Below, piece after piece: positions 331-8,342 of a stretch of 18,079 bases of DNA; position 1 is the stretch's first letter; the number at the start of each line of letters is the position of its first letter. This DNA is from Hormoscilla sp. Its GTDB lineage: Bacteria > Cyanobacteriota > Cyanobacteriia > Cyanobacteriales > Desertifilaceae. The stretch is from positions 1-18,079 of the forward strand of contig JBFRWI010000216.1 in NCBI GenBank assembly GCA_051439505.1, read 5' to 3'. The notes under the pieces were generated by a model, which was not told the origin of the DNA, searched no databases, and worked only from the letters and a program-made list of their open reading frames with translations. The translations under genes were made by a program, and so were the position numbers.

Positions 331-3300
331 TCAACCCAATGGCAACTCTCCATACAACTCCACCTGTAACGGCGAAATATCTCCCTGACAGATCCAGGCC
401 CCCCAATAATAAGGATGAGACAAGGGACAACCCTCATCCCCATAATTCCATTTCAATCCTTGCAAAATCTCCCGGCCCAAGTCCGACTGACGCAAGACCC
501 CAGCCGTGACCGTGCGAACGTCAAACTGAGCCTGGGCAAGAGCTTCCGCCCGTCCGAGTCCGGCCTTCAGGTGGTGGAAAAAGCGCTCCATCAGGTAAGC
601 GGTGGCACGGGCCGGAACCGACCAAAGGCTCATCAATAATGTTTTTGACCCCGCGACGACAAAAGCCCGCCGCAAGCCAAATACCCCCTCGCCATAAGAG
701 ATTTCACCGAGTCCGGTTTTGCAGGCAATCAGGGCGCTGAGTTCGTTGCCCCACAAGTCCAACGTGGCAACATCCTGGGCAAACAGAATCCCCTTCATCC
801 CTTCTGGAAGAGGCTTTCCCTGGTTCCAGATGTTGGCTCCCGCCAGGGCAATTCCTGCCCGGTACATGGCATCCTCCGCCTCCTCGGGATCGATGGGACT
901 GGGGGGATTTTCCTGGAGGTAGGCTTGAATTTGGGGGATAAAATTGCGTGACCGTTGGGTAATTTGGGGATTCTTAGCCTCGAAATATTGGGCAACTTCT
1001 TCTACCGCGTCCAACAGACGCCTGTTCATCAGATTCAGATAAGGATCTTTCTCAAACAGGTTAGTTTCGGTTCCTGGTTCGGCTTCAAGTAAAGTGAGCA
1101 CAAACTGAATATAAGCTTTTTGGGCGATGCCAGCGAAACCGTGGGTGGCAATTACCAGGATCCGGGGACAGTCTCCATCGGTGAGATGGTAGGAAACCGC
1201 GTCCTTGTCTAGGTGGGGTTGCGTGTCTAAGAGTTCTCCCACGCGACGACCGAAAATATCGGTTCCTTCGGCACGAGTGAAACCGGAGAGAGTAGCTACA
1301 GTGGTTTCTAAACTTGCGGTGGCAATTCCTTGGGAAGGTTCAGCAGCCGCAGGGTGGGTCTTTTTCCCGTCCCAATTATAATCGGGGTCGGCGAGAATGG
1401 TTGCCGGACAGACTTTCAGAGGGCGTTCAGTGATATCGAGACGCAGGAGGTCGCGTCCCGCACTGAGGTAGCTGATACGATATTCATCGCCGAGATAGGG
1501 TTTATTAGTCGTTATATCCAGGGGGAGAATCTGAAACGGCAGTAGATTCAGGGTACTGTCAGGCGCGAGGAACCAGTGGGAAGCGGAGTCTAAGGCATTT
1601 ATTAAAGGTTGGCAGAGGGTTTGATAGAGTTGATAGAGTTGCTGCTGCTCGTCTAACTGCTTCTTGGCTTTTTGGGCTGCAAACTTTTTCTTATGAAGGC
1701 CGAGGCGAAGGCGATCTTTTTCAGAGACAACATAACTGCGAAACACTTCAATTAACTCGTCTAGGGGCTTGGCTTTTCCTAAGTCTAGGAGTCTCACTTG
1801 TTCTGGTTGGTGCGCCATGACCGCAAAAGCGAGATAGCGATCTTCTTGCCATTGCGCTTCTTTCGGTGCATTAAAATCACAGCGTCGGAAGCGGACAAAC
1901 TCCACCAGGGCCGAACCTTCCGGCAGTTGCTCGGCAATGACTTGACGGTTAAGGTTTTCTTGGTTCAGTTGCAGTTCCGGGATTTCCTCGGCCAGTTGTT
2001 TTTCGAGGATTTCGGCTTTATTTCGCTGTTGAGTCACTTTGTCGCGGCGTTCTTTCAGGCGTTGTTGGTAATTTTCAGAAGATTCATTCGGTTGAGGAAT
2101 AATCACCTTAAACGTTTCTTTTTTCAGCTCCTCAAGGCACTGTTGCCAATCACGGAAGAGGGATTTAATCTCTTCTGAATAGCGCCCGCTATAGATAGCC
2201 GCACTTTGCGCCGCTAGAGCAGCAGTGGTTAGGGCTTTGCGGCGCAATACCGCATCCAACGCTGCACCAACTGCCTGGGAGTCGTCCCGGAGATGTTGCC
2301 AGATGAGGTTAAGAAATAAATAATAGGTAGAGGGATTTTTTTGCAAGTATTCCCGGCGTTCGCGATCGGAACTGGTGCTGAATACATAGCGCAGGCGCAG
2401 GTTTTCCGACTCTAAGGACGCTTGAAACTGTTGGAACACTTCTTTGTATTTGCCCTGAGACCGGTACAACTCTGCCAAGTTATTCAGGGTGCTAGCGAGA
2501 TAGGGATGGTTTTGGGGTAAGGCTATGCGGACAATATCGAGCGCTTCATGGTAGCGTCGTTCCGCTTCTTCGTATTTGCTCTGAGAATAGTACAAATTAG
2601 CCAGGTTATTCAGGTGGGTGGCGAGATGGGGATGGTTTTTGGGTAAGGCTATGTGGTCAATGGCGATCGCTTCATTTAAGCGTCGTTCCGCTTCTTCGTA
2701 TTTGCCCTGAGAACGGTACAACTCTGCCAGGTTATTCAGGTCGGTGGCGAGTGAGGGATGGTTTTTGGGTAAGGCTATGCGGTCAATGGTGTAAGCTTCA
2801 TGGTAGCGTCGTTCCGCTTCTTCGTATTTGCCCTGAGAATAGTACAAATTAGCCAGATTATTCAGGTGGGTGGCGAGTGAGGGATGGTTTTTGGGTAAGG
2901 CTATGCGGTCAATGGCGATCGCTTCATGGTAGAGTGGTTCGGCTTCTCTGTCTTTGCCCTGAAATTCATACAACAGGGCCAGGTTATTCAGGTGGGTGGC
3001 GAGATGGGGATGGTTTTGGGGTAAGGCTATGCGGTCAATGGCGATCGCTTCATGGTAGAGTGGTTCGGCTTCTTTGTCTTTGCTCTGTTCGTTGTACAAA
3101 AGAGCCAGGTTATTCAGGCTTATGGCAACTTTGGGATGGCGATCGCCCCAGCGTTGTCGCGCAATTTCTACGGCTTGTTGCGCCAGGGGAATAGCAGCGC
3201 CGTAGTTACCTTGTTGGTACAACTCCATGACTTGTTGGTTTACCGCGTCCCAACTGTCGGAGTTTTCAGCAGTTGTAGCGCCCACAATCTGAGGTTGCAG

Positions 3301-3504
3301 TTCTTGGGCCAGTTGTTCCAACCACTGCGCTGCATTATCTTGACCTTGCTGCCGAAGGTATTGACTGTAATGTGCCATCACTGTTAACAATCCTGCATCA
3401 AGCAGCTTCGTATGGGCTTCGAGAATAGCTAATTTCTCGCCATTGGGACAGCCCAGTAGTTCTTGAATCAGTTCGAGGTATTGCTGAATCAGTTGTTCGT
3501 TCAT
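331..3504 (-). CDS. TPR-repeat CHAT-domain (caspase/separase-like, clan CD) cysteine protease
   Basis: N-terminal helical domain, then ~7 42-aa TPRs (LNNLAxLYxxQGKYEEAE), then a CHAT domain. CHAT motifs: APDSTLNLLPF, ILADPDY, IATHG (His788, nt 1141-1143), LIACKTGLG (Cys928, nt 721-723), GEGVFGLRRAFVVAG, LMSLWSV, HPYYWGAW. Confidence 0.93.
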   Translation of the reverse strand: MNEQLIQQYLELIQELLGCPNGEKLAILEAHTKLLDAGLLTVMAHYSQYLRQQGQDNAAQWLEQLAQELQPQIVGATTAENSDSWDAVNQQVMELYQQGNYGAAIPLAQQAVEIARQRWGDRHPKVAISLNNLALLYNEQSKDKEAEPLYHEAIAIDRIALPQNHPHLATHLNNLALLYEFQGKDREAEPLYHEAIAIDRIALPKNHPSLATHLNNLANLYYSQGKYEEAERRYHEAYTIDRIALPKNHPSLATDLNNLAELYRSQGKYEEAERRLNEAIAIDHIALPKNHPHLATHLNNLANLYYSQSKYEEAERRYHEALDIVRIALPQNHPYLASTLNNLAELYRSQGKYKEVFQQFQASLESENLRLRYVFSTSSDRERREYLQKNPSTYYLFLNLIWQHLRDDSQAVGAALDAVLRRKALTTAALAAQSAAIYSGRYSEEIKSLFRDWQQCLEELKKETFKVIIPQPNESSENYQQRLKERRDKVTQQRNKAEILEKQLAEEIPELQLNQENLNRQVIAEQLPEGSALVEFVRFRRCDFNAPKEAQWQEDRYLAFAVMAHQPEQVRLLDLGKAKPLDELIEVFRSYVVSEKDRLRLGLHKKKFAAQKAKKQLDEQQQLYQLYQTLCQPLINALDSASHWFLAPDSTLNLLPFQILPLDITTNKPYLGDEYRISYLSAGRDLLRLDITERPLKVCPATILADPDYNWDGKKTHPAAAEPSQGIATASLETTVATLSGFTRAEGTDIFGRRVGELLDTQPHLDKDAVSYHLTDGDCPRILVIATHGFAGIAQKAYIQFVLTLLEAEPGTETNLFEKDPYLNLMNRRLLDAVEEVAQYFEAKNPQITQRSRNFIPQIQAYLQENPPSPIDPEEAEDAMYRAGIALAGANIWNQGKPLPEGMKGILFAQDVATLDLWGNELSALIACKTGLGEISYGEGVFGLRRAFVVAGSKTLLMSLWSVPARATAYLMERFFHHLKAGLGRAEALAQAQFDVRTVTAGVLRQSDLGREILQGLKWNYGDEGCPLSHPYYWGAWICQGDISPLQVELYGELPLG
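2440..3135 (-). repeat. 126-bp intragenic tandem repeats encoding the 42-aa TPR units
   Basis: RTTATTCAG (LNN on the minus strand) recurs every 126 bp from 2479 to 3109 (6 copies) with high DNA identity between units. Confidence 0.95.
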
Positions 3505-3558
3505 AATTTGTTAAGAGGAATAAACCACAAAGGCACAAAGAACACAAAAGAGAAATAT

Positions 3559-4503
3559 TTAAACTATCTCTAATTCGGTAGAGAGTAACCGCGCCTGGGG
3601 ATGTTTCGTCACATACTCCAACATTTCCTGCAAGTGCGACGGTTGCAACTCCAACGGCTCCCAAGGACTTGGTTTCAACCATTCAAAGATGTCAGTCTGA
3701 GAAGTCAGCAGCGCCAACCACTGTTCTTTACCCACATCCGTCGCCGCAAATGTTTGATAAGTACCCTCCCGCTCTTGCAGTTGCGGTAACTCGTGCATCC
3801 CCGCAGAGAGACGATTGTTCGGTGCATATTCCCCCGACGGACAGAAACAGACCACCGTCCCATCAGTTTCCCGCCCCAACAAAGTCAAATTAGCCGCTTC
3901 TGTGAGAGTCATCTGTAAAATCAGCTCACTCCCAACTTTCACCTGTTCCACATAGGGTAGACGTCTGCGGTGACGCCCTAAATCAGCGACAGCTCGGGGT
4001 GAGACTACCGGTTGAGGTCTGCTGTGCGCTGAATTAGCGAAGGGTTGGGGTGAGACTACCGGTTGAGGTCTGCTGTGACGCGCTGAATTAGCGAAGGGTT
4101 GGGGGAGTACCTCACGAAACCCCATCTGTTGCGTCCGTTGGGACTTATCGGCGAGCATCTCCCACAACCACGGCCCATACTGGGTCTGCGCCAACCACTG
4201 ACGCGCCTGCACCCAGAGTCTTCTAGCATTGTCTTCATAGGTGAATCCTAATTTCCTCAGTTTGGGAAGAATTTCTCGACTCCAACGGTTTTTTCGCGCT
4301 TCCTCAGCTGTCACATGAGGCTGGAGCGATTCGACAATCTCGTCCCACTGGTATTCGAGTTTATCCTCAGATAACCGCTCGGTCAGAATATTAGCCACAG
4401 AGGGCTGGAGGTCTAGTTTCGCGGCGATATAACGGAGGAACTCCGCTTCGTAGTCCTTGGGAATCTCCATGGTTTCCACCACCTTGATATTAAACGATTC
4501 CAT
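3559..4503 (-). CDS. Putative N-terminal HTH-like domain + repeat linker + C-terminal DUF4384-like beta domain protein
   Basis: The C-terminus VKVGSELILQMTL..NLTLLGRETDGTVVCFCPS..YAP..L..G.HELP..F.ATDVGKEQWLALLT fits the DUF4384 pattern. The helical N-terminus (YQWDEIVESL..TAEEARKNRWSREILPKL) is HTH-like. The gene ends 54 bp upstream of the CHAT gene on the same strand. Confidence 0.7.
   Translation of the reverse strand: MESFNIKVVETMEIPKDYEAEFLRYIAAKLDLQPSVANILTERLSEDKLEYQWDEIVESLQPHVTAEEARKNRWSREILPKLRKLGFTYEDNARRLWVQARQWLAQTQYGPWLWEMLADKSQRTQQMGFREVLPQPFANSARHSRPQPVVSPQPFANSAHSRPQPVVSPRAVADLGRHRRRLPYVEQVKVGSELILQMTLTEAANLTLLGRETDGTVVCFCPSGEYAPNNRLSAGMHELPQLQEREGTYQTFAATDVGKEQWLALLTSQTDIFEWLKPSPWEPLELQPSHLQEMLEYVTKHPQARLLSTELEIV
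3963..4100 (-). repeat. In-frame 51/54-bp tandem duplication in the inter-domain linker
   Basis: 3996-4046 and 4047-4100 are identical except for a 3-bp indel (PQPFANSA[R]HSRPQPVVS). A diverged third copy lies at 3963-3995 (RAVADLGRHRR). Confidence 0.9.
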
Positions 4504-4585
4504 ATTGTAACTCTCCTAACTGCCATTCAGCCTGTCCTTATTCTAAACACTGTTTGGGAAAAATTATTGCCTCAAAAAAACTTAT

Positions 4586-4662
4586 GAGACAAAATGCGAC
4601 ATCCCGCGACATCAGGAGACAAAATGCGATAAAACCTGAAAATAAGGAGACAAAGTACGACA
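4586..4662. promoter_or_regulatory. Helically phased direct-repeat array, probable operator in the divergent promoter region
   Basis: 15-mers GAGACAAAATGCGAC (4586), GAGACAAAATGCGAT (4616), GAGACAAAGTACGAC (4647). Core G(A/C)GACA-like hexamers at 4586, 4596, 4606, 4616, 4626, 4647, 4657. Confidence 0.65.
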
Positions 4663-4726
4663 AATAACCTTGTGGATTAAAGATTGGGTTTGCTAAAAAT
4701 AAAGCATAGAGTTAAAGGTCTCAATT

Positions 4727-5236
4727 ATGAAACTGCAATCCCTCAAGCAAATCCCCTTGCAAAGCCCTACCCTTCGCGAACTACATAGCCAAATCTCGCA
4801 GCAGCGCCCGGAAATCAAACCCGTCAAACCTTTACCCTCTCTGTTTTCTGGCGGACGGCTACAAATGTCCCAACACTTAGACATGTGCATCCGCATTCTG
4901 ATTCCCACTACCGTAGATGTGCAGGTTCCTGCCGACAGTTCCCAGTTTGTCGAACGGGCAAACTTGCTTTTGTCGCGACACTTTGGGGGAACGATGTGCA
5001 AATTACTTCTCGGCTTTTACGAGAGCGAAAATCAAAATATCGGTTTGGTGAAGGAAACAATTTTTGAAGTCGAAGCCTGGACCAATGAGGCGGGTTGGAA
5101 ACAAGCTGAAGCCGCCATTGAGGAGTTCCTGGCAGATATGTTGGTGGAACTCAGGCAAGAAACGGTGTTTGTGGCAGTTAATAATAAGGAAGCCTATTTG
5201 TTGAAATTATCCCCTGACCAAACCCAAGTCGCTTAA
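4727..5236 (+). CDS. Hypothetical protein; C-terminal ~115 aa resemble a DUF3574/PII-like ferredoxin-fold domain
   Basis: Pattern IRILIPTT..LLSRHFGG.....GFYES....LVKE....VEAW...LRQETVFVAVN is typical of these small alpha/beta domains. The N-terminal ~50 aa are Pro/Gln-rich, so the start could be at a later Met. Confidence 0.6.
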   Translation: MKLQSLKQIPLQSPTLRELHSQISQQRPEIKPVKPLPSLFSGGRLQMSQHLDMCIRILIPTTVDVQVPADSSQFVERANLLLSRHFGGTMCKLLLGFYESENQNIGLVKETIFEVEAWTNEAGWKQAEAAIEEFLADMLVELRQETVFVAVNNKEAYLLKLSPDQTQVA

Positions 5237-5263: not shown

Positions 5264-5311
5264 GGGTGCATCTCACTCCTACAAATACATCTGCAAATCT
5301 GAGATGCACCC
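5264..5311. mobile_element. 48-bp miniature inverted-repeat element / IS footprint
   Basis: Perfect 12-bp inverted repeats GGGTGCATCTCA (5264-5275) and TGAGATGCACCC (5300-5311). It sits exactly where the Rpn-like pseudogene is truncated. Confidence 0.6.
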
Positions 5312-6080
5312 ATCCGAACATTTCTTCAATCTCCTGAATACTTAGGGTGGTAAACTTGTAGAAGACCATCCTCTCAATTAATTCTCGAACAGCCCGATCG
5401 CATCTTCCTCAAAGGACTGTTGTGCTTGTTAAATTAATCGCCCCGATCGGGCAGCAGGGGTTGCAGGAGGTTCTACAATTAATTGTATCATGCCCAAACC
5501 CACTGACCGGTCTGCTGCCGGACCAAACTATCCAGATAGATGGGCATCACTTGCTCGGACATGAGGTATCCCCGATACTGCCTCGGCACGGATCCTGACT
5601 GCGCCCAATACTTCTCGGTTAAGAATTTTATTTGTCATTGCGAGGGGGGTACGTAGCGATTAACTTATGCTTTCTTGAGTTAACCCCCCGTTAGCGCAGC
5701 GGCGCGACGCAGGAGCGCTAGCAATCCCCCGCCTAGTATAATAGGAAGAGCGCTTCGGCATCGTTCGCTGTATCGTCCGGAGCGCGGTTGAAGACTACTG
5801 GACGATACCGCGCGGTGAGATTGCTTCGGGGGGGAACTCGGCGGAGATCCCTCAATTATCGGTTTTGGTTTCCCCCCTCGCAATGACAGGTTCTTAACCG
5901 AGAAGTATTGAAACTGCACCTGGTGTGATGTATACTGGTTCATATGGTATCATCAGGCAGCTTCAGCAGCCCATCCATGGGGAATGTCGGCTGTTTGATT
6001 TCTACCGAAGTAAATCTGTATGCTGAGGGCATGAACTGGCGATGTAACGGTGGATGAACTGGTACAATAGATTTGTGAAA
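5312..6080 (-). pseudogene. Degraded Rpn-family recombination-promoting nuclease / putative transposase (DUF2887-like), split by a MITE
   Basis: Minus-strand fragments in order: TNLLYQFIHRY / SAYRFTSVEIKQPTFPMDG / EPVYIT / QVQF [MITE 5606-5910] GSVPRQYRGYLMSEQVMPIYLDSL / AADRSVGLGMIQLIVEPP..RLI*QAQQ / ELIERMVFYKFTTLSIQEIEEMFG. These match the DUF2887 consensus (YRFxSVEVKQ..FRIDG, EVQFQ, IYLDEL, ELIETI.VYKF..LS..EIE.MFG), with several frameshifts and an in-frame TAA. Confidence 0.85.
5606..5910. mobile_element. 305-bp non-autonomous MITE with nested inverted repeats
   Basis: Perfect 20-bp terminal IRs CAATACTTCTCGGTTAAGAA (5606-5625 / 5891-5910). Perfect internal 17-bp IRs TGTCATTGCGAGGGGGG (5633-5649 / 5872-5888). 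No transposase ORF; it interrupts the Rpn pseudogene. Confidence 0.85.
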
Positions 6081-6292
6081 ATCAACTCTACCAGTTCCCG
6101 GACAATACGAGAAGACTCCGATGACGAGATCCGATGCTTTAGCCCAGAGAAATACCCTCTTGCTAAAACCCCGCCTATATGATAATATTGTCAATGCAGC
6201 AACTGTGGCCCAAAATAGGTACGGGCGATCGCAAATCAAAACATTCAGTACCGTCAACAGGGAACTGCAAGGGCAAATGTAGAGAATATATA

Positions 6293-6838
6293 ATGAAAAA
6301 TAATCCCTTAGTAAAAATCAGCAAATACCTGAGTAAACATCTGCGGCATAGTCCCGACAGAATAGGTTTAGAACTGCAACCGGGAGGCTGGGTTTCGGTC
6401 GCAGAACTCCTGGTAGCTTGTCAAAAACATAAATTTCCCATTTCCGAGAATGAATTGAAAGAAGTTGTCGCACAGAACGATAAAAAACGCTTCTCATTCG
6501 ATCCCACAGGCACGCGCATTCGGGCCAACCAAGGGCATCCTGTAGAAGTAGACTTGCACCTTCGATCCCAAATTCCCCCAGATGTACTTTACCACGGCAC
6601 TTCTCACAATGCTATTGAAGCGATCGCCCAGACAGGTTTATTGAAAATGTCGCGACACCACGTGCATTTATCGACAGATATTGCCACAGCACGAAATGTA
6701 GGCAAGCGTCGGGGGCGTCCGGTAATTTTTGCCGTAGATGCTGCCGCCATGCACGCCGCAGGTTATAATTTCTACTGTAGCGAAAACCGAGTTTGGTTAG
6801 TCGATCGCGTTCCCCCGGAGTATCTGGTGGAGGTGTAA
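6293..6838 (+). CDS. kptA: RNA 2'-phosphotransferase (Tpt1/KptA family)
   Basis: Motifs SKYLSKHLRH, GGWV, NDKKRF, IRANQGH, LYHGT, GLLKMSRHHVHLS, VGKRRG, NRVWL. Homology begins at the ATG at 6293 (181 aa), not at 6179. Confidence 0.95.
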   Translation: MKNNPLVKISKYLSKHLRHSPDRIGLELQPGGWVSVAELLVACQKHKFPISENELKEVVAQNDKKRFSFDPTGTRIRANQGHPVEVDLHLRSQIPPDVLYHGTSHNAIEAIAQTGLLKMSRHHVHLSTDIATARNVGKRRGRPVIFAVDAAAMHAAGYNFYCSENRVWLVDRVPPEYLVEV

Positions 6839-7097: not shown

Positions 7098-8342
7098 ATG
7101 GATCCAGAATTAGAGAACATCATACGAGAAATTGAAGCAATGGACTCAAGAGACTTTGGCTACCCAGACTCAGGATATAACAACCATCAAAGCCGAGGGT
7201 TACTAACAGCAGGTTGGCGACCTTTAAATCGAGAAGTGGATTGGGAATATTTACGGCATCTGGTGTATAACGATCCCTGGGAATTGACCCAGAAAACCCT
7301 GGGTTTCGTCAGCGATCTAGCAGATGCCTTAGGTCGGACTCAATATAGCTGGTGGGCAAATATATTTAATCTCTTCTCAGAAAACACCCGATATGAATTG
7401 GATGAATTTTGGGATTACATAACTCCCCAGCCCCTAGCCCCAGATTATCGATATAAAGATGTTATCAGTACAGAAGCACCAATAGTTCAGTCAGTCAGCC
7501 GCGATCGCATTCCCATCGATTATGTCCTCAACCGGCTCCAGGAGATTACCGTTTTCAAGATTCTGGAATTATTGTCCAAGCCAGAATTAATCACACAGTA
7601 TTACCTAGACCGACATTTTTATTATCCTGTAGAAAAATTTACCAGTTGGGAAAGGGTGGAAACCCTGGGCAGCGTTTCCGCCTACTGGTCAAAATTTCAA
7701 GTTTGGCTGCAAATAGATAATATGGGCCGCAGCCGGCGACGCTACACGCTGATCGCCCAAGACATTGCCCCACTGGTGAATAAAGCCACTTACAATCTAG
7801 CAGTGATGCTCAGTGGTTATCAAAATCGGATTGGACAGGTACATTCTCAGTTTCCTATTAAAACATTTCCAGCAGATATCCAAAGCTTCACTGACAAAGT
7901 TCAGCAGGCAATAATCGACCAAAACCAGCTAGCAGTTCTGGTACAAGGTGAACCAGGTACGGGGAAAACAGCCTGGACCCAAGCGGTGGCCAAAGAAATC
8001 TTAATGCCCCTAGGATATGTAATTTTTATCCTCGACCATGATGCGGTGGAAAACTTTATCCCCCCCAGTTACCTGGAACGGATTTGTCTCATCATCAATG
8101 AAGCAGATAACTTGGCCCAAGACCGCTCAATGGCAGCAGCTCAAAGAAATAATAAAACTGAGCATATTCTCAGTTTACTGGATGGAACATTGTACAATAG
8201 TGTCATAGAGGAATCGGGGGTGCAGTTGCAACAAAAATTCGTTGTATTGATGACTTGCAATACCACAGAAAGACTAGACCCAGCGATGTTACGCAAAGGA
8301 AGAGTCGATTGGACTTATGAATTTGTTCACCGATTTGTATAA
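7098..8342 (+). CDS. AAA+ family ATPase with an uncharacterised N-terminal region
   Basis: Walker A GEPGTGKT, Walker B-like LIINEAD, sensor-1 MTCNT, and SRH/Arg finger LDPAMLRKGRVD near the C-terminus. Confidence 0.88.
   Translation: MDPELENIIREIEAMDSRDFGYPDSGYNNHQSRGLLTAGWRPLNREVDWEYLRHLVYNDPWELTQKTLGFVSDLADALGRTQYSWWANIFNLFSENTRYELDEFWDYITPQPLAPDYRYKDVISTEAPIVQSVSRDRIPIDYVLNRLQEITVFKILELLSKPELITQYYLDRHFYYPVEKFTSWERVETLGSVSAYWSKFQVWLQIDNMGRSRRRYTLIAQDIAPLVNKATYNLAVMLSGYQNRIGQVHSQFPIKTFPADIQSFTDKVQQAIIDQNQLAVLVQGEPGTGKTAWTQAVAKEILMPLGYVIFILDHDAVENFIPPSYLERICLIINEADNLAQDRSMAAAQRNNKTEHILSLLDGTLYNSVIEESGVQLQQKFVVLMTCNTTERLDPAMLRKGRVDWTYEFVHRFV

Follow-up and report, generated by a model that had tools for sequence, protein, structure and literature searches.

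The contig JBFRWI010000216.1 of the cyanobacterium Hormoscilla sp. (assembly GCA_051439505.1), the whole of which is referred to here as the window (18,079 nt), carries a cassette of three genes. A caspase-like protease composed of tetratricopeptide repeats (TPR) and a CHAT domain is encoded on the minus strand together with a smaller partner protein, in which a helix-turn-helix (HTH)-like domain precedes a DUF4384 domain, and a third gene is divergent on the plus strand. The partner gene lies 54 bp upstream of the protease gene, and a spacer of 223 bp separates it from the divergent gene. Pfam recognised TPR and CHAT in the protease and DUF4384 in the partner, and gave no match for the 169-residue product of the divergent gene. 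An initial annotation, made from the letters of the sequence, had described this arrangement, an intact His/Cys dyad in the protease and a phased repeat array in the spacer. Open reading frames (ORFs), Pfam and the residues H788 and C928 confirm the gene pair, the array withstands shuffling (see below), and the small gene pointing the other way proves to resemble S-adenosylmethionine (SAM) lyases.

Protease, partner and distribution of the cassette

The cassette behaves as a self-contained module with a patchy distribution. Named homologues of its proteins belong to filamentous cyanobacteria, and within the phylum 31 of 401 genomes gave a match to a profile of the partner. The unit was sought without success in four other genomes of the genus. 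The genes do co-occur elsewhere. We examined 34 loci with a DUF4384 partner (loci carry our own numbers, L001 onwards), five of which were not assessable owing to a contig end or an insertion (L006, L007, L043, L054, L061). In all 29 assessable loci the partner is followed, at a distance of no more than 4.2 kb, by a CHAT gene of the same orientation; frameshifts, gaps or insertion elements disrupt several of these CHAT genes. Three other runs yielded contigs that are colinear with the genes of the window, and their sequence departs from it just past the stop of the divergent gene (~5259).

The CHAT domain of the protease is matched with an E-value of 2.5e-43 (149 bits against a curated cut-off of 24), and the two catalytic residues are invariant in 23 of 23 aligned CHATs; with its complete dyad the protease is predicted to be active. 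Its N-terminal helical domain recurs as an insert between the catalytic His and Cys, which profile searches recovered in 12 of 14 CHATs tested; the likeness of domain and insert was detected by profile, and pairwise BLAST did not succeed. A sensor role is predicted for the TPR units because positions 3, 6, 7, 13 and 16 are hypervariable between near-identical repeats, with a pN/pS of 1.6-2.6 against 0.6 overall (36 units from eight of nine genes, L001 having yielded none; the repeats are not independent of each other). The invariance of positions 8-12, 14 and 15 is an artefact, these being fixed by the search pattern. A ligand groove subject to diversifying selection would be expected to vary in this way, and variable TPR sensors are described for fungal NLRs (NOD-like receptors; PMC10907252).

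The DUF4384 match of the partner lies slightly above its cut-off (E 9.9e-7, 29.2 bits against 27), and a link between this domain and substrates of CHAT proteases is published, in that the C-terminal domain of one Csx30 group is DUF4384 (bioRxiv 10.1101/2022.08.17.504292). The structure model of the partner is confident at residues 10-120 and poor elsewhere. That its N-terminal domain binds DNA stands as a prediction. Pfam yielded no HTH match for it; nearly all top structure matches of the model are HTH domains (Spo0A, NarL, sigma-4), albeit weak ones (Z 4.5-6.1), the best being Spo0A (Z 6.1, root-mean-square deviation 4.1 over 90 residues), and the genomic evidence, which includes the tracking of operator sequence by HTH clade described below, is stronger. 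The ESM Atlas gave no usable match for the HTH and only unnamed clusters for a Cro-type partner, and the partner profile matched no sequence in the PDB. A Foldseek search with the partner model returned no significant match and did not list Csx30, a result that excludes nothing given the poorly modelled DUF4384 half. The HTH-like domain is exchanged for a Cro/C1 HTH in one family, which in L046 scores above the Pfam cut-off, and it is fused elsewhere to NACHT, NB-ARC or AAA_35 ATPases of the signal transduction ATPase (STAND) type. Pfam finds a STAND NTPase in these relatives with the same HTH and none in the protease or partner of the window. We regard the partner, by prediction, as an HTH-type regulator whose HTH is exchangeable between families. 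A helix and a strand at about residues 109-130 are common to DUF4384 partners with unrelated N-terminal domains (partner profile positions 112-273), and the C-terminal module has weak fold matches that begin at 116-123 (Z 2.9).

The phased array and the shared motif

The divergent spacer holds GMGACA-type boxes in 10-bp phase, starting at 4586, 4596, 4606, 4616, 4626, 4647 and 4657, with a degenerate box at 4636. A chain of seven was reached by none of 30 dinucleotide shuffles, the best of which contained five. The 6.47-Mb genome has ten chains of at least five boxes, among which the spacer array is the sole 10-bp-phased one; the nine others are perfect tandem repeats of 21-22 bp, and on this ground an explanation of the array as a generic genomic repeat was rejected. 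The conserved columns of the spacer alignment are the boxes and not the intervals between them. Chains of three to seven GACA boxes are present in nine of nine loci of clade A, one supported branch of the HTH tree, against at most two boxes in 35 of 35 other loci. Chains of at least three TCTAY boxes occur in six of seven clade-B DUF4384 loci and in five of ten STAND fusions of the same HTH, with no more than one such box in clade A. In a de novo phasing test, which is free of any chosen pattern, none of 30 shuffles equalled the phasing in eight of nine clade-A loci (the ninth has a spacer insertion); most Cro-type and STAND loci did not reach significance in it. L040 retains the GACA boxes although its divergent gene is a different one (TauD-like). 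Across the loci compared, box sequence tracks the HTH clade and neither the divergent gene nor the C-terminal fusion, and the array is a predicted operator for the HTH of the partner. Among related HTH fusions, L058, L059 and L066 have divergent PD-(D/E)XK, Cas4-like nuclease genes, L058 and L059 with phased boxes of TGWCAT type.

A further regularity links protease and partner. In each protease a loop mirrors a motif that the cognate partner carries just N-terminal of DUF4384, the pair in the window being LGLHKK and LGRHRR. Pairs elsewhere read LGARR/LGARR, LGM/LGM or FGM, LDMW/LEMW, LGLR/LGLR and LGW/LAW. Over 24 pairs the mean best 5-mer score is 21.6 for cognate combinations and 14.8 +/- 1.0 for permuted ones (0 of 100000 permutations), and the match holds within clades (p 0.011, 0.031 and 0.003). 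Three pairs added later match too (LDMG/LDMG, LDMV/LNMA and HLGM/HFGL); L112, a duplicate of L002, was left out, and in L110 the loop of the protease could not be found. An origin by DNA duplication was rejected, since most of the shared residues use different codons and only 16 of 41 the same one. Trees indicate that in clade A the motif goes with the type of DUF4384 rather than with the catalytic core: L005 (LGM) joins L038 (LGA/LGV) in the tree of CHAT cores (99/95) and L039, which likewise has LGM, in that of DUF4384 (92/82). In addition, an acid after the CPS motif of DUF4384 accompanies a basic residue of the tag in 19 of 21 cases, compared with 0 of 31 others. This tracking and the charge pairing suggest that DUF4384 reads the motif as a tag.

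The partner motif also resembles the mapped cut site of Csx30, which lies after AVGM in AVGMKK, in a hairpin inside the C-terminal domain (bioRxiv 10.1101/2022.08.17.504292). Because the segment at about 109-130 accompanies DUF4384 whatever the HTH, the motif loop in our partner is probably likewise inside the C-terminal module. The proposal of the initial annotation that CHAT cuts a linker between HTH and DUF4384 is supported as far as the motif match goes; the candidate site is not clearly in the interdomain linker.

Two loci extend these observations. A paralogous DUF4384/CHAT pair in the same genome (G000:C226, L001:2201-7744) has a different HTH, TCTAY boxes and an LDMW/LEMW motif, and in L044:7815-9807 two tandem HTH-DUF4384 genes stand ahead of one CHAT gene, whose loop motif is matched by the nearer gene only.

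The divergent gene and other outputs

The 169-residue protein models as a PII-like fold, to which the phage SAM lyase Svi3-3 is closest (Foldseek E 4.3e-7; VIA Z 9.7, root-mean-square deviation 3.8 over 121 residues). A first lyase profile of 12 sequences had no match among PDB sequences; Svi3-3 is the top match of a profile built from 77 (E 0.0068). Residues G96, Y98, E110, Q144 and E145 correspond to G56, Y58, E69, Q104 and E105 of Svi3-3, which bind its substrate, and SAM-AMP lyases have the Glu and the Gln in common with Svi3-3 (PMC7877911, PMC12255297). All five active-site residues are kept, and by model and profile the divergent gene is a predicted SAM lyase. A 143-residue subfamily (hhalign 93.5%) occupies the divergent place in most orthologous loci, and a lyase-like gene is divergent in eight of nine clade-A loci, with the spacer conserved at ~220 bp.

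Within the order, the lyase-like family was found in 34 of 301 genomes. Among the 30 lyase loci returned, 12 face HTH-DUF4384 genes, eight face large STAND/WD40/TPR genes (six by Pfam scan, two assigned by likeness), four follow CHAT-DUF1822 operons and six adjoin no recognised regulator. Since the gene adjoins three kinds of sensor-regulator, one lyase-like output appears in these comparisons to be served by three types of front end. In the CHAT-DUF1822 type (L119, L120, L121, L123) the lyase-like gene lies downstream of CHAT, of an unannotated gene of 205-309 residues without a Pfam match, which may be sigma-like, and of DUF1822. Behind the lyase-like gene a recurrent cassette of a small Cys-rich protein, a C3a124-family gene, a 240-residue unknown and a pentapeptide-repeat protein is seen in L002:2392-5088, L003:2001-4579, L106, L117, L118 and L121; the C3a124 family is catalogued among type III-B accessories without an assigned function, and PADLOC matched it in L002 and L003, the loci tested. 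The SAM-lyase-like domain is also the C-terminal part of many larger proteins (P0042, P0048, P0052, P0053 and others), and 11 of 23 such longer proteins scanned carry a cNMP-binding domain, which suggests cyclic-nucleotide-gated versions.

Other outputs occur in the same position. In the Cro/XRE-type family (L045-L054, L061, L062) a full-length reverse transcriptase-Cas1 (RT-Cas1) gene is directly divergent in seven of 12 loci and broken or rearranged in others; a crude scan placed CRISPR-like arrays in 12 of 12, and Cas2, Cas6 and Cas10/Cmr2 are confirmed in L046 and L047. The epithet "CRISPR-independent" given in the initial annotation consequently holds for the contig studied and not for this family. 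Elsewhere the divergent gene encodes a PD-(D/E)XK nuclease or a GNAT, TauD-like or AraC protein, and some loci have none.

Table 1. Coordinates of the features of the cassette in the window
Feature	Position	Strand	Basis or remark
TPR-CHAT caspase-like protease gene, 1057 aa	331..3504	-	ORF list, Pfam, alignment
Catalytic Cys928	721..723	-	sequence and alignment
Copy of N-terminal helical domain, residues 796-865, between catalytic His and Cys	910..1119	-	profile, E 7e-6
Catalytic His788	1141..1143	-	sequence and alignment
Protease loop motif LGLHKK, residues 601-606	1687..1704	-	mirrors partner motif
42-aa TPR units, five full and one partial, predicted sensor	2383..3138	-	near-identical 126-bp DNA repeats
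N-terminal helical domain of protease, residues 1-78	3271..3504	-	also present as internal copy
HTH-like/DUF4384 partner gene, 314 aa	3559..4503	-	ORF list, Pfam, profile, model
DUF4384 core, residues 188-269	3697..3942	-	Pfam PF14326
Partner motif LGRHRR, residues 175-180, candidate cut or docking site	3964..3981	-	just before DUF4384
51-bp duplication lengthening the loop before the partner motif	3975..4076	.	absent in related strains
Predicted HTH DNA-binding domain, residues 15-113	4165..4461	-	model, structure search
Possible -10 hexamer (TAGAAT) for the leftward operon	4540..4545	-	by eye; not listed by the promoter scan
Array of seven GMGACA-type boxes, 10-bp phase, predicted operator	4586..4662	+	shuffles, alignment, genome scan
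Divergent gene, 169 aa, PII-like fold, predicted SAM lyase	4727..5236	+	ORF, model, profile

Beyond the cassette the window contains nested perfect inverted repeats resembling miniature inverted-repeat transposable elements, at 5606-5910 (arms of 20 and 17 nt) and 5264-5311 (12 nt); the hairpin at 5264-5311 draws in unrelated contigs. Positions 6179-6838 encode a KptA/Tpt1 RNA 2'-phosphotransferase and 7098-8342 an AAA ATPase whose N-terminal portion has no annotation.

A probable protease-gated switch and its alternatives

From what was observed, namely the arrangement of the genes, the intact dyad, the co-occurrence, phased boxes that are specific to a clade, motifs that match and conserved lyase residues, we infer a transcription switch gated by the protease, which in some form is probable. 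That it works by clustering of the partner and turns on the SAM-lyase-like gene is a plausible version of it, to which we would give slightly less than even chances. In this version the variable TPR groove would bind a foreign or stress ligand and thereby render the CHAT protease active, which would then cut, or at least engage, its own loop at the L-G-x motif and the partner at the corresponding motif. The exposed tag might be read by the DUF4384 of a neighbouring molecule (the weakest step), such that the partners cluster and their HTHs load together, cooperatively, on the seven boxes along one face of the DNA. The divergent gene would be transcribed as a result, and the resulting protein would deprive the cell of SAM or of a nucleotide derived from it, slowing the infected cell of the filament. 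Clustering is favoured because the STAND fusions with the same HTH and boxes seem to be functionally equivalent to the DUF4384 partners. STAND activators, with MalT as the precedent, switch on by oligomerising. Given that the motif is probably part of the C-terminal module, clustering of the cleaved partners is no less plausible than a release of the HTH.

Such a release is the core of an alternative that we consider unlikely, though it deserves to be taken seriously: as in LexA or CI, the intact partner would oligomerise through DUF4384 and repress, and the cut would free the HTH so that the boxes are vacated and both promoters fire. Co-occurrence, operator and motif fit this equally well, six-base boxes are too short for a monomer and call for cooperativity, a minus-strand consensus promoter at 4592-4563 overlaps the first box (although the scan matches are near chance level), and cleavage of Csx30 frees its N-terminal regulatory part (bioRxiv 10.1101/2022.08.17.504292). 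A cut at 175-177, however, may not free the HTH at all, given that the segment at 109-130 travels with DUF4384 and that the fold matches of the module start just there, and the use of the same HTH and boxes by STAND fusions points to activation by oligomerising. With lower probability still, the motif would escape cutting altogether and serve as a docking tag or pseudo-substrate: tags would be exchanged, and the partner would be an inhibitor or would be held by the protease until the ligand arrives. The discordant trees of clade A, in which the motif follows DUF4384 and not the catalytic core, are in favour of docking, as are weak Foldseek matches to protease inhibitors of the chagasin/ICP type (E 0.17-1.4). 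The latter are not significant, and both the invariance of the dyad in every aligned CHAT and the resemblance to the Csx30 site speak for cleavage. The least probable of the alternatives is that the HTH controls only its own operon, the protease acting on other targets, in cell death or differentiation, and the divergent gene being replaceable cargo outside the control of the boxes. The variety of divergent genes, their absence at some loci and the lyase-like genes without a recognised regulator agree with this; it sits less well with the conserved position and spacing of the lyase-like gene in clade A, with the 24 of 30 lyase loci that adjoin a sensor-regulator and with the motif that links the protease to this very partner.

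Several observations weigh against a switch by clustering that turns on a lyase, beginning with the fact that we infer all of its functional steps. The Z scores of the HTH matches (5-6) are within the range of chance arrangements, and the DUF4384 half of the partner model is poor. The GACA and TCTAY patterns were picked after inspection of the data. No promoter could be placed in the spacer (two consensus matches against 0.6 +/- 0.9 by chance), for which reason activation is not distinguished from repression. The motif match is modest in the window, with a score of 18 where a different part of the protease reaches 22. In only eight of the 24 pairs does the cognate loop come first, and in 17 it is among the top three; kin among these pairs are not independent, and L055 and one copy in L044 lack a match. 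The charge pairing amounts to about three changes on the tree, with two exceptions. The 143-residue subfamily of most orthologues carries W in place of Y98 and E in place of Q144, proteins with PII-like folds serve many functions, and the copy in the window is without the C3a124, pentapeptide and zinc-ribbon genes that follow the lyase in some relatives.

The cassette would work like the Csx29-Csx30-sigma arm of Craspase and, in its purpose, like DdvA-DdvS, and belongs to neither. With the type III-E Craspase arm (Csx29, Csx30, Csx31, RpoE), as far as the published accounts go, it shares a TPR-CHAT protease, a two-part partner encoded next to it and a transcriptional output, and with Csx30 a hydrophobic-Gly-x site early in the C-terminal domain and, for one Csx30 group, a DUF4384 (PF14326 above cut-off). 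In contrast to Craspase, the contig is without Cas7-11 or CRISPR RNA; no gene of Cas7-11 size (well over 1300 residues) is on it, the longest ORF having 1057. As to the anti-sigma domain of Csx30, Csx31 and the ECF sigma factor, PADLOC gave no match for the partner or the divergent gene. The partner has a predicted HTH of its own instead of holding a sigma factor; set beside the N-terminal anti-sigma part of the Csx30 type, its N-terminal domain has 110 residues and is HTH-like by weak structure matches. A dedicated phased array and a copy of the motif in the protease are further differences. In Myxococcus xanthus a TPR-CHAT sensor, DdvA-DdvS, governs how a defence island, type III CRISPR among its contents, is transcribed (PMC11506125). 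DdvA is, by the available account, a membrane anti-sigma protein with an incomplete active site, unlike the complete dyad and separate HTH-like partner in our cassette, where no sigma factor was recognised.

In STAND activators such as MalT and AfsR, and in cleavable repressors such as LexA/CI and CapH/CapP, a signal changes the oligomeric state on repeated boxes. The cassette resembles STAND activators in its repeated boxes and in relatives that fuse the same HTH to NACHT, NB-ARC or AAA_35; it differs from them in having no NTPase, the switch being a separate caspase-like protease. The predicted lyase shares the PII-like fold and the spacing of G, Y, E, Q and E with phage SAM lyases (Svi3-3, T3) and CRISPR SAM-AMP lyases (PMC7877911, PMC12255297). 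Unlike these, it is, as predicted from sequence and model, a host gene behind a sensor-regulator with an N-terminal extension of 45 residues. The literature searched, which comprised few subscription papers, contains no description of an HTH-DUF4384/TPR-CHAT cassette or of a host SAM lyase as effector.

The cassette is real and conserved, and probably a variant of protease-gated defence transcription with testable predictions. Tentatively, it may be viewed as the split, proteolytic equivalent of an NLR-type transcription activator, made up of a TPR-CHAT sensor, a peptide code, DUF4384 clustering, an exchangeable HTH and a 10-bp-phased array, in which sensor, peptide code, DNA code and output could each be swapped; its outputs would include a host SAM lyase as defence effector and an RT-Cas1 adaptation module of type III CRISPR. 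Orthogonal pairs of motif and box could supply synthetic biology with modular protease-gated switches. For the cyanobacteria themselves the cassette bears on three open points, namely the role of DUF4384, the targets of the many stand-alone cyanobacterial TPR-CHAT proteases and the induction of defence genes, which in filamentous cyanobacteria would include CRISPR spacer acquisition. The neighbouring gene that the unit would switch on is probably defensive, a predicted SAM-destroying enzyme in Hormoscilla sp. and CRISPR spacer-acquisition genes in relatives. If this is true, a host SAM lyase under inducible control would turn an anti-restriction enzyme of phages into an effector of their host.

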